A stretch of 64,000 bases of DNA from Octopus vulgaris (taxonomy: Eukaryota). The notes under the pieces were generated by a model, which was not told where the DNA came from, ran no database searches, and saw nothing but the letters and a program-made list of their open reading frames with translations. The stretch spans positions 169,880,001 through 169,944,000 of the forward strand of contig OX597814.1 of assembly GCA_951406725.2 (NCBI GenBank). Direction: 5' to 3'. This document shows positions 20,628 to 51,367 of this stretch, piece by piece. Made by a program: the position numbers and the translations under genes. Numbering within the stretch: position 1 is the stretch's first letter; each line of letters opens with the position of its first letter.

Positions 20628-21362
20628 ATATTTTGTCTGCCGCTATTTTCTGTGTTCAAATTCCACTGAGGTCAACTTTGCATTTCATCCTTTCGGCGTC
20701 GATAGATTAAGTACCAGTTATGCACTGGGGTCGATATAATCGACCGAATCCGTTTGTCTGTCCTTGTTTGTCCCCTCTGTGTTTAGCCCCTTGTGGGTAG
20801 TAAAGAAATAGGTATTTCGTCAGCCGCTATGTTCTGAGTTCAAATTCCACCGAGGTCGACTTTGCATTTCATCCTTTCGGCGTCGATAGATTAAGTACCA
20901 GTTACGCACTGGGTTCGATATAATCAACTTAATCCGTTTGTCTGTCCTTGTTTGTCCCCTCTGTGTTTAGCCCCTTGTGGGCAATAAAGAAATAGGTATT
21001 TCGTCTGCCACTATGTTCTGAGTTCAAATTCCACCGAGGTCGACTTTGCATTTCATCCTTTCGGGGTCGATTAAATAAGTACCAGTTACGCACTGGGTTC
21101 GATATGATCGACTTAATCCGTTTGTCTGTCCTTGTTTGTCCCCTCTGTGTTTAGCCCCTTGTGGGCAATAAAGAAATAGGTATTTCGTCTGCCGCTATGT
21201 TCTGAGTTCAAATTCCACTGAGGTCGACTTTGCATTTCATCCTTTCGGCGTCGATAGATTAAGTACCAGTTACGCACTGGGTTCGATATAATCGACTTAA
21301 TCCGTTTAACTGTCCTTGTTTGTCCCCTCTGTGTTTAGCCCCTTGTGGGAAGTAAAGAAATA
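20628..21362 (+). repeat. Four head-to-tail 184-bp units of the SINE family B body
   Basis: Units start at ~20628, 20812, 20996 and 21180 with junction aaagaaatag|gtatttcgtc; they match the monomeric SINE at 24292-24534 minus its first ~60 nt. Confidence 0.95.
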
Positions 21363-25025: not shown

Positions 25026-26046
25026 GCGGCAAAACACGAGCAAAACAAAAAACTGTTCTCAGTATTTAAGGAAGCTGACAAATACAAACAAGAAATCATA
25101 CCACCTAATAAACATGAAGAAGAAGAAGAAGATGAAGAAACAACAAAAGCTATAAAACAAATGAAATCCAAACTAAAAATAGAACAGCAACGAACCATGA
25201 TAAAACGATGGCAAGAAAAGCCCCTTCATGGTAAATACTGGACTAAACTAAACGCAAAAGAAATAGACAAAGAAAAATCCCAGCAATGGTTGAGAAGCTC
25301 AGGACTCAAAGCAGAAACAGAGCCTCCCCACCAGAAATTACCAAAAACATGTAATGAAAAGAAATATTACAAGTAACTGCAGAATATGTGGAGATGGACA
25401 AGAAACAATAAATCATATTATCTCTAGCTGCCCAGTCCTGGCTAAGAAGGAATATATTCACAGACATGACAGAGTTGGAACCTACATACATTGGAAGCTA
25501 TGCCAACATTATGGAATAACAACAGAAAAAAGATGGTATAGGCACACACCAGAAAAGGTCACAGAAAACGAGAAAGCAACCATACTCTGGGATATGCCGA
25601 TACACACAGATAGAGAAATTAAGGCCAACAGACCAGATATAGTTGTCAGAGATCGTGAAGAAAAAAATGCTTTCTAATTGATGTATCAATACCGGCAGAT
25701 GACAACGTGTCTCTAAAAGAAATGGAGAAACTCTCAAAATACAAAGACCTGGAAATAGAGGTAACTAGAATGTGGAATCTGAAAACAGAAACAATTCCTA
25801 TCATAGTAGGTGCATTAGGCATGATAAAAAAATATTCAGACAAATACATAACAAAAACACCAGGACTTACAAACACATATAATATACAGAAAATTTGCAC
25901 TACTAGGCACTGCACACATCCTACGCAGAACACTTTCCATACAATAACCATCAGAGCATCACAACAAATCACAGCACATACCTAAGGTACACAGAGCTGC
26001 GCTCGGTAGTGAAGTGAAAGCACGCTATAAAAAATAAAACTACTGA
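25025..26046 (+). mobile_element. 5'-truncated R4/Dong-clade non-LTR retrotransposon (CCHC zinc knuckle + restriction-like endonuclease) in (AAT)n
   Basis: WQEKPLHGKY, CRICGDGQETINHIISSC, RHDRV, WDMPIHTDREIKANRPDIVV, EKLSKYKDL, IPIIVGALG; frameshifted; (AAT)n on both sides, the target known for Dong elements. Confidence 0.9.
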
Positions 26047-37808: not shown

Positions 37809-38144
37809 ATAATCTAATATAGATTATACATTATAGGGTAGGTATGAGAGGTTGAATCTGGCTGCTTTGAACATAAAAGAAGGTACAATATTTGGGCCAG
37901 ATATGACCAAATTTAAATGCTTATAGATTAAATCACCTTGGACTCATCCATTTATTATTATTATTTGTTCAATCTGGAGAACAAGGCTGTGCCCATGGTA
38001 TTCACACCCATTCCAAGACCTTGAGATTGATGCCGTTCACATTCAGTTAAACTGTTACAAATTGATGACTGCAGGGAAATCATATGCATTTGTAAGCCAA
38101 AAAGTGCCAACATCCTGGGAAGAAACAACTGAACCAGCTAAGTT

Positions 38145-38301
38145 CATTATTTACATTATTTACATTATTTACATTCGATGGATATTTGTCCTCATTTTGT
38201 TTGTTGTTAACCTTTCGGCTGATATACCCTCCAGCCTTCTTCAGGTGTCTTGGGGAAATTTCGAACCTGGGTTCTCATTCCTAAGGTATTTTTCGATGCT
38301 A

Positions 38302-38344
<43 letters not shown>

Positions 38345-38595
38345 TACTATTTTTATTATTTTTATTGTTATTGTTCAGGTCACTGCTTGGAATCGAACTC
38401 AGAATCTTGGGGTTAGTAGCCTGCACTCTTAACCACTACGCCATATGCTGACTTAACCACTACACCATATGAAGAAGGCTGGAGGGTATATCAGCCAAAG
38501 TGTTGTGTTAACAACAAAAAAGATGAGGACAAATATCCGTTGAATATAAATAATGTAAATAATGTAAATAAATCCTCATCTCTTAAATATAGAAC
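38145..38595 (-). mobile_element. Non-autonomous PLE derivative: tRNA-like head + (AAT)n + hammerhead, with inverted partial copy
   Basis: Minus strand from 38448: gcataTGGCGTAGTGGttaag...GAGTTCGATTCC, (AAT)n, gacac-CTGAAGA-aggctg..cagcc-GAAA. Plus-strand inverted 3' copy at 38470-38595. Homologous to 48862-49119. Confidence 0.85.
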
Positions 38596-39037
38596 TGCAA
38601 CTAGGTTCAGTTGAATAGTCATTGCACCCCTATTTGCTGTATTATTTTGCTGTTCGTTATCATTTCTCTGCTGTCACTCCTTGCCCCCTCTCCCCACTTC
38701 TAATGACATCCACTCCTCATTCTTATTACTGCTCCTCTCCATATTTCGACCTTCCTTACCCCTGGTAACCATTCACTACATTTACCTCCACCTCTATTTG
38801 TAACCATCTTTCAAACTTACACCCATTTATTAATGCAGGTTAACCATAGATCCCTTCATACAACATACTACAAAATACATACACAGACACACATACATAC
38901 ATACATACATACATACATACATACACACATACATACATACATACATACATACATACATACATACATACATACATACATACATACATACATACATACATAC
39001 ATACATACATACATACATACATGCATGCATACATACA

Positions 39038-39886: not shown

Positions 39887-40303
39887 AGGCAGCGAGCTGG
39901 CAGAAACGTTAGCACGCCAGGCAAAACACTTAGTGGTATTTCATCTGGCGCTACGTTCTGAGTTCAAATTCCGCCGAGGTTGACTTTGCCTTTCATCCTT
40001 TTAGAGTCGATTAAATAAGTACCAGTTACGCACTGGGGTCGATATAATCAACTTAGTCCGTTTGTCTGTCCTTGTTTGTCCCCTCTGTGTGTAGCCCCTT
40101 GTGGGCAATAACGAAATAGGTATTTCGTCTGCCATTACGTTCTCAGTTCAAATTCCGCCGAGGTCAACTTTGCCTTTCATCCTTTCGGGTTCGATAAATT
40201 TTGTACCAGTTACGCACTGGGGTTGATGTAATCGACTTAACCCCTTTGTCTGTCCTTGTTTGTCCCCTCTATGTTTATCGCCTTGTTGGCAATAAAGAAA
40301 TAG
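39887..40303 (+). mobile_element. SINE family B with one head and two tandem 184-bp bodies, nested in a SINE A copy (39729-40580)
   Basis: Units start at 39936 and 40120; approximate TSD (g/a)aaactgtgta on both sides. Confidence 0.9.
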
Positions 40304-40847: not shown

Positions 40848-41669
40848 TCATCATCATCATCATCATCATCGTTTAGCATCCGCTTTCCATGCTAGCATGG
40901 GTTGGACAGTTCAACTGGGGTCTGGGAAGCCCGAAGGCTGCACCAGGACAGTCAGATCTGGCAGTGTTTCTACTGCTGGATGCCCTTCATAACGCCAACC
41001 ACTCCGTGAGTGTAGTGGGTGCTTTTTATGTGCCACCGACACAGGTGCCAGACGAGGCTGGCGAACGGTGTTTGTTACGTGCCCACAGCACGGAGGCCAG
41101 TCGATGTGTTACTGGCTACGGCCACGTTCGGATGGTTTTCTTATGTGCCATCGGCACTAGTACCACAAAAATGCAAATTCCATTGATGTTCATCGATTTT
41201 GATTTGATTTGATTTTGATTTTGATTTTCACTTGCCTCAACAGGTCTTCACAAGTAGAGTTATGTGTCCCAAGAAGGAAGGTATGCACAGGTGGACTGAC
41301 TACGTCCCAGGTAGGGGCCATGGGTTATGGCCTCACGTGTTCTGCCGGGTCTTCTCGTGCACAGCATACTTCCAAAGGTCTCGGTCTCTTGTCATTTCCT
41401 CGGTGAGACCTAAAGCGCGAAGGTCGTTCTTCACCACCTCGTCCCAGGTTTTCCTGGGTCTACTTCTTCCACAGGTTCCCTCAACCGCTAGGGTGTGGCA
41501 CTTTTTCACACAACTATCTTCATCCATTCTTACTACGTGTCCATACCAGCGTAGATGCCTCTCTTGCACACCACATCTGATGCTTCTTAGGTCCAACTTT
41601 TCTCTCAAGGCACTTACACTCTGTCGGGTATGAACACTGACATTACACATCCAACGGAGCATACTGGCA
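40848..41669 (-). mobile_element. 5'-truncated RTE LINE inserted in the microsatellite of a SINE A (head 40679-40847)
   Basis: MLRWMCNVSVHTRQSV...LRWYGHVVRMDED...RPRKTWDEVV, UTR and (GAT)n tail. Confidence 0.92.
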
Positions 41670-41880: not shown

Positions 41881-42162
41881 GCTCAATTTTCCAATCAGGC
41901 GTTGCTTACCATGTTCTCTTCACCGAGGATCCAGTTGTGTTGACAACTTGTGTTGGTTGACCACATGCCACATGGTCACAGCAGATGAGGAAGTCTCTCA
42001 CAAAGATTAGCTTCGACTCTGCTTGACAAGTACCCAGGAGGACTTGGGAATATACCAACAAACGGTGAATGCAGCAACATGAGGCAACAACGCATGCTCC
42101 TCACACCTAACTTAACCAAGCACATGGCCTAAAATTTGAGAGATTAAATTAAGTGATTAAAT

Positions 42163-43460
42163 ATGTGGCAGATGCTCGGGAGCATTGACCTCCGAAAATC
42201 TGCAGAAAACAACTTCCGTCACTTTCCAGGGGGAAAAATTAGAAGTAGTTGATAGCTTCCGTTATCTAGGTGACCAAGTCAGTAGTGGGGGTGGGTGCGC
42301 TGAGAGTGTAACTGCTAGAATAAGGATAGCCTGGGCAAAGTTTAGGGAGCTCTTACCTCTGCTGGTGACTAAAGGCCTCTCGCTCAGAGTAAAGGGCAGA
42401 CTGTATGATGCATGTGTTCGAACTGCCATGCTACATGGCAGTGAAACATGGGCCGTGACTGCTGAGGACATGCGTAAGCTCATGAGGAATGAAGCCAGTA
42501 TGCTCCGATGGATGTGCAATGTCAGTGTACTTACTCGACAGAGCGTTAGTTCCCTGAGAGAAATGTTGTACCTAAGAAGCATCAGTTGTTGCGTGCAAGA
42601 GAGACGATTGCGCTGGTATGGTCATGTGGCGAGAATGGATGAAGATAGGTGTGTGAGAAAGTGCCAATCCCTAGCAGTTGAGGGAACCCGTGGAAGAGGT
42701 AGACCCAGGAAAACCTGGGACGAGGTGGTGAAGCACGACCTTCGAACGTTAGGTCTCACCATGGAAATGACTAGAGACCGAGACCTATGGAAGTATGCTG
42801 TGCGTGAGAAGACCCGGCAAGACTAGTGAAGCCATAACCCGTGCCCCCTACCTGGGACGTAGTCAGTCCACCTGTGCATACCTTCCTGCTTGTGACACTT
42901 GTGAAGACCTGTTGAGGCAAATCAAATCAAAGTCAAATCAAATCAAGTCAAACCAAATCAAAATAGATGAACATCAATGGAATTTGTATCCTTGTGGTAC
43001 CAGTGCCGGTGGCACATAAGAAAACCATCCGAACGGGACCGTAGCCAGTACCGCATCGACTGGCCTCCGTGCTGTGGGCACGTAACAAACACCATCCGAT
43101 CGTAGCCGTTCGCCAGCCTCGTCTGGCACCTGTGTCGGTGGCACATAGGAAAAACACCGAAAACACCATATCCGAGCGTGGCCGTCTGCCAGCCTCGTCT
43201 GGCACCTGTGTCGGTGGCACATAAAAAACACCACCATCCGAGCGTGGCCGTCTGCCAGCCTCGTCTGGCACCTGTGTCGGTGGCACATAAAATCACCCAC
43301 TACACTCTCGGAGTGGTTGGCGTTAGGAAGGGCATCCAGCTGTAGAAACACTGCCAGATCTGACTGGCCTGGTGTAGCCTTCGGGCTTGCCAGACCCCAG
43401 TTGAACCGTCCAACCCATGCTAGCATGGAAAGCGGACGTTAAACGATGATGATGATGATG
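42163..43460 (+). mobile_element. 5'-truncated RTE LINE with an uninterrupted C-terminal ORF (42164-42826)
   Basis: LEVVDSFRYLGD...ARIRIAWAKFREL...LYDACVRTAMLHGSETW...LRWYGHVARM...GRGRPRKTW; 3' UTR with five structured units; (GAT)n tail. Confidence 0.95.
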
Positions 43461-48852: not shown

Positions 48853-49041
48853 AACCTGAATATATTACATTATTTATATTATTTACATTGTTTACATTCG
48901 ACAGATATTTGTCCTCATCTTGTTTGTTGATAATACAATGTTTTGGCTGATATACCCTCCAGTCACCTTCAGGTGTCTTGGGTTCTCATTCCTAAGGTAT
49001 TTTTTGATGTTATTATTATTATTATTATTACTAGTATTGTT

Positions 49042-49119
49042 CAGGTCACTGCTCGGAATTGAACTCGGAATCTTCGGGTTAGTAGTAGCCCGTGCTCTTA
49101 ACCACTATGCCATATGCCC
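49042..49119 (-). promoter_or_regulatory. tRNA-like internal Pol III promoter inside the PLE 3' terminus
   Basis: A box TGGCATAGTGG and B box GAGTTCAATTCC with tRNA spacing; the copy at 38376-38448 has TGGCGTAGTGG and GAGTTCGATTCC. Confidence 0.7.
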
Positions 49120-49151
49120 ATGGGCAATTGTAGAGAGAATTTTAGGGCTTA

Positions 49152-49552
49152 TTAATCTAATATTTTCTTATCCTTCCTTAATACCGATTCCCGTATGCTG
49201 CTCATATCTGCATTCGGTGTGCTTAGGTGGTTGTTGTGTCCTAGCAGATGTGCTGCTTCTTTTAGTTTTCATATTTTCCAGTGGTGTTCTCTGTCTATTA
49301 TTTTAACTTCATCACACAGGGGGAGGTGGTCTCTAGTTTTCCATACGTGATCAACTATACCTGATTTATCAATATCTCCTCGTGTCACGGCATTGTGATG
49401 TTCATCTACTCTTATTTTGAGGGGGCAGCATGTTTCGCCTTTGTATAACCTACCAAAGCTGCACGAGATGGAGTACACACAGTCTTTGGTCATATTCTCT
49501 TCTATTGGTGGTTTTACTTGAAGGAGATATTTGCGAAGTGTTGCATTACTAA
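49152..49552 (-). pseudogene. PLE GIY-YIG endonuclease domain remnant
   Basis: KDCVYSISCSFGRLYKGETCCPLKIRVDEH...KSGIVDHVW...KIIDREHHWKI*KLKEAAH...KKILD*; one in-frame TGA at 49269-49271 at the usual Arg of R..KEA. Confidence 0.88.
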
Positions 49553-50061: not shown

Positions 50062-51367
50062 CATCATCATCATCATCATCATTTAGCGTCCGTTTTCCAT
50101 GCTAGCATGGGTTGGACGGTTCTGCTGGGGTCTGTGAAGCCAGAAGGCTTCATCAGGCCCAGTCAAATCTGGCAGTGTTTCTACGGCTGGATGCCCTTCC
50201 TAACGCCAACCACTCCGTGAGTGTAGTGGGTGCTTTTTACGTGCCACCCGCACTGGTGCCAGCCAGAGCTGGCAAACGGCCACGAACGGATGGTGTTTTT
50301 TATGTGCCACCGGCACGAGGGCCAGGCGAGGCTGGCAACGAACACGAAACGGGGCGGTGCTGGCAACGGTCGCGAAACGGAAGGTTCTCTTACATGCCAC
50401 CGGCACTGGTAACACATCTGCAATTTCCATTGATCGATTTCCATTGATCGATTTCGATTCTGATCCTCACTTGCCTCAATGGGTCTTCACAAGCAGAGTT
50501 TCGACATGCCACCGGCACTGGTAGCACATCCGCAATTTCCATTGATCGATTTCGATTCTGATCCTCACTTGCCTCAACACGTCTTCACAAGTAGAGTTTT
50601 GTGTCCCAAGAAGGGAAGGTATGCATACGTAGGCTGGCTCCATCCCATGTAGAAGGCCACGGGTTGTGGACTCACTTGTCCTGCCGGGTCTTCTCGCGCA
50701 CAGCACACTTCCAGAGGTCTCGGTCTCTAGTCATTTCCTCGGTGAGACCTAAAGTTCGAAGGTCGTGCTTCACCACCTCGTCCCAGGTTTTCCTGGGTCT
50801 GCCTCTTCCACAGGTTCCCTCAACCGCTAGGGTGTGGCACTTTTTCACACAACTATCTTCATCCATTCTCGCCACATGACCATACCAGCGCAAACGTCTC
50901 TCTTGCACACCACAACTGATGCTTCTTAGGTCCAGCTTTTCTCTCAAGGTACTTACACTCTGCCGAGTGTGAGTACTGGCATTACACATCCATCGGAGCA
51001 TACTGGCTTCATTTCTAGCGAGCTTACGCATATCCTCAGCAGTCACGGCCCATGTTTCACTGCCATGTAGCATGGCTGTTCGTACACACGCATCATACAG
51101 TCTGCCTTTCACTCTGTGCGAGAGGCCTTTTGTCACCAGCAGAGGTAAGAGCTCTCTGAACTTTGCCCAAGCTATTCTTACTCTAGCAGTTACACTTTCA
51201 GCACACCCGCCCCCGCTGCTGACTTGGTCACCTAGGTAACGGAAACTATCAACTATTTCTAGTTTTTCTCCCTGGAAAGTGACAGAAGTTGGTCTCAGAG
51301 CATTTTCAGTGTTTATTGTTCCTGAGCATCTGCCACATTGTTTATTGTTCCTGAGCATCTGCCACAT
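50062..51367 (-). mobile_element. 5'-truncated RTE LINE with ORF 50672-51367
   Basis: CGRCSG...LEIVDSFRYLGD...HGSETW...GRGRPRKTW; UTR units; (GAT)n tail; short tandem duplication at the 5' junction. Confidence 0.95.

Follow-up and report, generated by a model that had tools for sequence, protein, structure and literature searches.

A stretch of 64,000 nucleotides of Octopus vulgaris DNA (contig OX597814.1, positions 169,880,001 to 169,944,000), referred to here as the window, was analysed around a repeat at 38145-38597. Positions within the repeat family carry a plus or minus sign and are numbered from the first G of its tRNA-like head, which is +1. The main arm (38145..38448, minus strand) was delimited by alignment as a solo end repeat, or pLTR, running from head position +3 to the proximal of two internal 3' ends (~+270-276). 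Read along the minus strand, it consists of the tRNA-derived head (38376..38448, +3..+75; motif reading and alignment), the (AAT)n tract of the 5' leader (38298..38375), the length of which differs between copies, and the decayed first codons of the ORF of a Penelope/Poseidon-type retrotransposon (PLE), with the ATG at 38278 (38145..38278). Within the head, an A box (38433..38443) and a B box (38389..38398) match the consensus at all positions. Within the codons lies a minimal type I hammerhead (38205..38249), which in the fold of the main arm is broken: neither the cleavage triplet nor stem I's 3' strand remains. The ORF-less succession of head, (AAT)n, hammerhead and tail described in the first-pass annotation is real as anatomy; its "tail", however, is the first ~51 codons of an RT-GIY-YIG ORF in decayed form, and the hammerhead is broken in both arms.

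The inverted arm (38470..38597, plus strand; +183..+301) runs to the distal 3' end, where it carries the PLE tail extension, and reaches 2 nt beyond the limit previously drawn for the repeat. Its hammerhead is incomplete, lacking the 5' strand of stem I and carrying core changes. One arm of the copy therefore ends at +301 and the other at ~+276. Next to the main arm's head, with 3 extra bases between them, head positions +4..+23 recur as a direct duplicate of 20 nt (38452..38471, minus strand), as the earlier reading had proposed; this duplicate overlaps the inverted arm by 2 nt. The end of the main arm at +3 and the start of the duplicate at +4 may represent two run-offs near one template end. 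The inverted partial 3' copy noticed earlier also exists, but the arms are joined head-to-head with their 3' ends outward, not tail-to-tail. Similarly, the 5' end at 38448, equated earlier with the predicted Pol III start, does lie near the 5' limit of the family but sits at +3, 8 nt short of G-6, the family's cleanest 5' end. The whole is enclosed by a target-site duplication (TSD) of 12 nt with 10/12 identical positions (left copy 38135..38146, with 2 nt common to the element end; right copy 38598..38609; plus strand). The pre-insertion site of this copy (38125-38144 plus 38598-38613) is palindromic, its 10-bp arms flanking the cut.

A second family member is present in the window at 48868..49550 (minus strand), where the decayed end of a GIY-YIG ORF (~49550-49149) is followed by a 29-nt spacer (49148-49120), the head (from 49119) and the pLTR. 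A majority reference was built from loci of the same 2.8-Gb genome, with a depth of at least 38 over the ORF, and gave a unit of 2,652 nt (2.65 kb) in the order head, (AAT)n, ATG/hammerhead, RT-GIY-YIG ORF (~824 codons) and 29-nt spacer. The ATG is at +148, the hammerhead falls inside the first codons, and the tail continues straight into the ORF in loci L184 and L190 and in 86 of the 108 anchored sites. Because the A-run at ORF nt 388 has either 6 or 7 bases (four copies against four, L184 and others), the frame is uncertain after codon 131; no intact full-length copy was recovered.

RT segments in the family loci matched RVT_1 (E 5.5e-10), and a protein of the anole aligned with 35% identity over the RT thumb and the endonuclease, the motif of which comprises CVY...YKG, C-x-C and two His. 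No Pfam match to GIY-YIG was obtained in the family ORF, and we take the endonuclease to be of this type from the alignment to the anole protein. Taken from the RVT_1 match, this alignment and the motif, the single ORF has the PLE order of RT followed by GIY-YIG with a CCHH motif. A database protein (P0001, 53% identical) starts in the same way as the family ORF, and the family grouped with it (support 100) among relatives in a quick tree of 38 rows built without named Neptune/Naiad references. The pLTR with its ORF start and optional tail of 30-40 nt, and the tandem or inverted insertions with TSDs, are likewise as in PLEs; an inverted arm was present in 42 of 67 solo copies and absent from 25, and a TSD was detected in 27/67. 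This layout is that of Penelope/Poseidon elements as far as the available portions of PMC11167929, PMC3846280 and PMC8557442 describe it.

Ten insertions were counted in 370 kb of arbitrarily chosen DNA, which extrapolates roughly to ~76,000 genome-wide (range ~36,000-140,000); exact matches to the A-box pattern number 4,148 in the genome. Most copies extending past +301 (L380-L499) are tandem chimeras formed via template jumps, often with A-rich added bases. Five loci of contig C31 (L113, L120, L124, L125 and L133) are copies within larger duplicated blocks that are 94-98% alike.

When the non-coding part of the family was shuffled 20,000 times, A and B boxes at tRNA spacing never arose (0 of 20,000). 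Since ARAGORN and Rfam gave no match to a tRNA or a hammerhead in the window copy or in a well-kept family copy, the labels tRNA-like and hammerhead rest on motif reading and alignment. Aligned with tRNA genes of the same genome, the head has as many as 49 identical bases (z as high as 7.3). Assignment of a parent tRNA was attempted with 12 genes of ~9 types and abandoned, as Arg and Ala genes scored best (z ~7), Thr lower, and no clear parent emerged. The head has no cloverleaf fold. Like SINEs, the family opens at its 5' end with a tRNA-derived head that carries A and B boxes. The hammerhead of the well-kept copy does fold, with stems I and II (z -3.1), and in that copy the family possesses a minimal pLTR hammerhead of the PLE kind. 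The first-pass annotation had expected ends at the GTT cleavage site, which were not found: 0/238 arms have their 5' end at the predicted cut. A retrozyme or active hammerhead retroelement, in which self-cleavage sets the ends, is not supported by the same count, and the count agrees with the report, in the part of PMC11167929 available, that PAc can do without self-cleavage in vitro. Of 194 classifiable arms, 27 lack 3 nt at the predicted cut (+215..+220), and this deletion is present in both haplotypes; it can be read either as slippage or as RT jumping on cleaved RNA.

Two preferred 3' ends, at +270-276 and +301, lie inside the ORF start. Exactly one arm at +301 and the other at +244..+282 were found in 28 of 33 two-armed rows (one insertion being counted twice). 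These paired ends mirror the two internal RT starts of PAc, for which two-strand priming is also described (PMC11167929, seen in part). Mobilisation by PLE machinery, as the earlier reading had proposed, is upheld by these paired internal 3' ends and by the tail that runs into the PLE ORF.

The 5' ends were surveyed in the first 100 listed A-box matches, of which 98 sites were parsed, one non-member was dropped and 97 were used. Among the matches listed, 67/97 copies end within -8..+9 and 1 of the 30 surviving copies ends in the next 17 nt (-9..-25), later 17-nt windows taking 0-17%. The sharp peak at the tRNA +1 that the first-pass annotation had set as its own test was thus obtained, with the ends scattered over -8..+9 rather than on a single base; among the matches listed, 28/97 lie at -7..-2 and a sub-peak of 24/97 at -1..+3. 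Farther downstream, across the linker and hammerhead, 1-14% of arms are lost per 10 nt (238 arms, in a sample biased toward long arms). In the arbitrary 370-kb sample, 4/10 insertions end in -8..+9. Read depth in three RNA runs of one study, which here serves solely to gauge copy coverage, stays level across ~280 nt of the ORF end and is then ~2.4- to 3-fold higher from the head start. A minor second cluster of 5' ends at -26/-27 (4/29 at risk; L228, L229, L233 and L293) is possibly a minor start.

Within the peak, five tandem junctions (two of which share one event) start exactly at G-6 after A-rich added bases. A pyrimidine precedes this base, which is 13 nt upstream of the A box, the distance at which a type 2 Pol III start is expected. 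That the 5' ends instead arise when a longer RNA is processed at its tRNA-like fold, by an RNase P-like cut at +1, is very improbable: such a cut would suit the sub-peak at -1..+3, whereas the ends at -7..-2, the clean junctions beginning at -6, upstream of +1, and the missing cloverleaf fold all speak against it.

The main rival to a Pol III start accepts the same solo-pLTR origin and treats the head as a passenger, with a Pol II start near -6 or snap-back at a palindrome producing the 5' ends and with the scarcity of T-runs due to compositional chance. A short palindrome (12 nt) covers -7..+5, so fold-back there could mimic the 5' peak, and pLTR 5' palindromes are known in PLEs without tRNA heads (PMC3846280, in the portion available). 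Fold-back was seen in only 13-15 of 67 solo copies, and an inverted arm is missing from 25 of the 67; in the 37 non-ORF-linked sites that retain the -6..+10 motif the upstream bases are fold-back in 25, other in 11 and genomic TT in one (genomic TT precedes the motif in 20/24 ORF-linked sites, vs 1/37). A TATA-like word ~28 nt before G-6 makes a Pol II start at that base possible, and the only mapped PLE promoter is of Pol II type, with Inr/DPE and an intron, according to the part of PMC2377424 available. Against a passenger head stand the perfect boxes at tRNA spacing just past the start, the clean G-6 junctions without fold-back, and the many solo ends located within the hairpin's 5' arm or past it rather than at its 3' foot. 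We regard the passenger reading as unlikely, and the terminator counts given below bear on it further.

On the sense strand of the 2,652-nt majority unit TTTT does not occur, while the ORF holds 28 A-runs of at least 4. Expected TTTT numbers were 2.95 under codon shuffling (P=0.03), 4.1 under base shuffling (P=0.01), 2.4 under a dinucleotide model (P=0.10) and 1.55 under a trinucleotide model (P=0.23); the absence of TTTT is by itself a modest result. After this first result, a count of TVTTT was added, which acts as a weak Pol III terminator in mammalian-cell data (PMC8466645, seen in part). TTTT or TVTTT occurs once in the ORF against 5.6 expected (P=0.006). The density of these motifs is 0.4/kb, compared with at least 1.51/kb in all 33 control PLE spans, a comparison of a majority sequence with single contigs; natural decayed copies of the family have 1.15 terminators/kb at 8.5% divergence. 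In 49 non-redundant control PLE ORFs from metagenome contigs, no depletion was found (267 TTTT observed, 236 expected). One of the 33 control spans of at least 1.5 kb lacks TTTT (L373, 2 kb of ORF), which lends the passenger reading some weight, while the density below that of all 33 controls argues against it. L373 was considered as a second terminator-free PLE with a tRNA head and rejected, being headless. No A/B box pair was detected 3' of the ORF in the 25 closest controls (8 of them with at most 100 nt downstream), and a stricter pattern gave no A/B boxes around 60 control ORFs.

The lone TCTTT, at +382, coincides with no peak of 3' ends. A short transcript ending there was hinted at by 30 loci and discarded when, with 86 loci, the 3' ends were seen to decay smoothly. 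RNA reads (three raw-read runs of one study and one contig set) were about equal on both strands, with no pile-up of starts or ends. The scarcity of terminators gives good but indirect support to Pol III read-through of the element, as judged from sequence.

The first-pass annotation had concluded that the repeat is a SINE arising from a PLE terminus, and solo copies were accordingly compared with ORF-linked ones. Divergence was 5.8% in solo copies (n=86) and 6.0% in ORF-linked copies (n=44; P=0.88). After correction, no site among the 24 variable ones was diagnostic of class (lowest P 0.012). Among 114 copies, both main non-CpG haplotypes occurred in both classes, the permutation of between-minus-within distance gave P=0.43, and nearest neighbours were of the same class in 40% of cases (57% expected). 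The comparison, with 114-130 copies of star-like divergence, has limited power. Four of 86 copies past +301 carry an A box, and all four start at ~-4..+4 with no spacer upstream. Because these headed, ORF-bearing copies start at the head, the head is the coding element's own 5' end. The solo and ORF-linked copies thus appear, from their alleles, haplotypes and ends, to come from the same source elements. No non-autonomous lineage with source copies of its own was recognised, and the copies are not free of coding sequence, their 3' half being the first ~51 codons of the PLE ORF. The claim of a separate SINE lineage is not supported, there being no difference in age, alleles or haplotypes and ORF-bearing copies starting at the same head: the repeat at 38145-38597 is a decayed solo pLTR of a Penelope/Poseidon-type retrotransposon.

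In its full form, the earlier model makes the pLTR a self-propagating SINE whose solo copies are transcribed by Pol III and which the PLE mobilises in trans. It draws on the ~2:1 excess of solo over ORF-linked copies among the A-box copies in the matches listed, and on the window copy, which keeps both boxes and has no TTTT from head to tail. It is weakened by the lack of private alleles, age difference or clustering in the 114-130 copies of star-like divergence, and by the head start that ORF-bearing copies share. In addition, PAc requires RNA past its RT start sites according to the available part of PMC11167929, and solo copies would by analogy lack such RNA. We consider this model improbable, less so than RNA processing and more so than a passenger head.

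Our preferred reading, which we think rather likely on the sequence evidence, is that the window copy is a decayed solo pLTR with two head-to-head arms in a TSD, its template being the 5' portion of an RNA which would have started at a tRNA-derived promoter and would have been made by Pol III. Transcription would begin at G-6. The element protein would bind near the ORF start and nick both target strands, and reverse transcription would start at the two internal sites. Each cDNA would run back to the first base of the RNA (G-6, 13 nt before the A box) or drop off earlier, and fold-back on the short palindrome, template jumps or a handful of added bases would link the ends. Priming in the 5' pLTR would yield a solo head-to-tail copy such as 38145-38597, and priming in the 3' pLTR a product with ORF sequence such as the copy at 48868; solo copies would then be by-products of sources that also yield ORF-linked copies. 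Translation of the protein might use the head-started RNA or a transcript made when Pol II reads through tandem copies. RNA made by Pol III would have no normal cap. As Pol III would have to read through full-length templates, we infer that the coding strand is under selection against T-run terminators. The broader proposal, to which we give an even chance, is that an autonomous coding PLE swapped its Pol II promoter for a tRNA-derived one, is read by Pol III over 2.65 kb, has had its ORF purged of terminators, and sheds tens of thousands of SINE-like solo copies by internal priming.

Much of this anatomy is already known from other systems, as far as the available portions of the sources go. 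PAc of the green anole (PMC11167929) and the Adineta Pen families (PMC3846280) likewise have a single ORF of RT and C-terminal GIY-YIG, a pLTR that takes in the beginning of the ORF and a hammerhead, a pair of internal RT starts ~30 nt apart that give an optional tail, head-to-head inverted arms, TSDs, solo pLTRs and pLTR 5' palindromes. In the text available for them, no tRNA head or Pol III promoter is described, whereas the octopus pLTR opens with A and B boxes and its ORF is terminator-poor. In Penelope of Drosophila virilis (PMC2377424, in part), an internal pLTR promoter also sets the 5' end, but that promoter is of Pol II type (Inr/DPE) with a spliceosomal intron, whereas the octopus family has a type 2 Pol III layout and no intron was seen in it. 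Schistosoma's SINE-like elements Sm-alpha and Sj-alpha (PMC2770079) are similarly tRNA-related, high-copy and hammerhead-bearing; they are described, in the part available, as non-coding, whereas in the octopus family head and hammerhead serve a coding PLE as its leader and first codons.

tRNA-derived SINEs (SINE2) such as B2 (PMC8466645, in part) resemble the octopus copies in their A/B-box head, simple-repeat tract, sharp 5' start and tens of thousands of short copies. They form their own lineages and are primed by LINE machinery at the RNA 3' end, whereas the octopus copies have sources in common with the coding element and ends at internal RT starts. Minimal hammerheads of metazoan pLTRs (PMC4209133, in part) share the type I core and the minimal palindromic stem III, and most of those motifs likewise sit in copies that are truncated or in pairs on opposite strands; the window copy has a broken hammerhead, and the octopus family shows no sign of 5' ends set by cleavage. 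Solo pLTRs, inverted arms, tails, 5' palindromes and minimal hammerheads (PMC4209133) are thus already on record, as is the combination of a tRNA head with a hammerhead (PMC2770079), both sources being available in part.

No tRNA-headed, terminator-poor or Pol III-transcribed coding PLE was found in the literature searched, the scope of which lay outside Repbase, supplements, repeat libraries and most subscription papers. The accessible text of two cephalopod repeat papers (PMC13282606 and PMC8967140) mentions no tRNA-headed PLE, and the curated library of PMC13282606 could hold the family; in the accessible part of PMC10886601, matches were confined to the reference list.

Pol III is held to make short non-coding RNAs. 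If our reading is correct, a natural coding retroelement of 2.65 kb would offer a test case for Pol III read-through, RNA export and translation. For repeat annotation, it would mean that tRNA-headed "SINE-like" repeats can be mere end products of a coding PLE. It would also trace how a PLE can give rise directly to a SINE-like repeat, seen at a stage before any separate SINE lineage had formed, and might plausibly represent a first step toward a PLE-dependent SINE. The large junction set appears to preserve, from events in vivo, both internal RT starts and the end-to-end template jumps that PAc shows in vitro.

Several other repeats were noted. Another retroelement has its 3' ends within (AAT)n tracts, among them those of the present family (L010, L012, L065, L084; window 25294-25677); its motif adjoins AAT in 15 loci, its ORF piece in the window is a weak zf-RVT match, and we presume it to be R4/Dong. 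A long inverted repeat at 146-402, with CTGATGA-like words in its arms, is possibly the end of another PLE family. LINE fragments in both orientations, presumably RTE-like, lie at 42156-42846, 50655-51345 and 41264-41668. Tandem units of 184 bp occupy 20629-21362 and 39935-40303, and also occur dispersed as a SINE-like repeat. At locus L196, seven tRNA-Cys-like genes are clustered within 3 kb.
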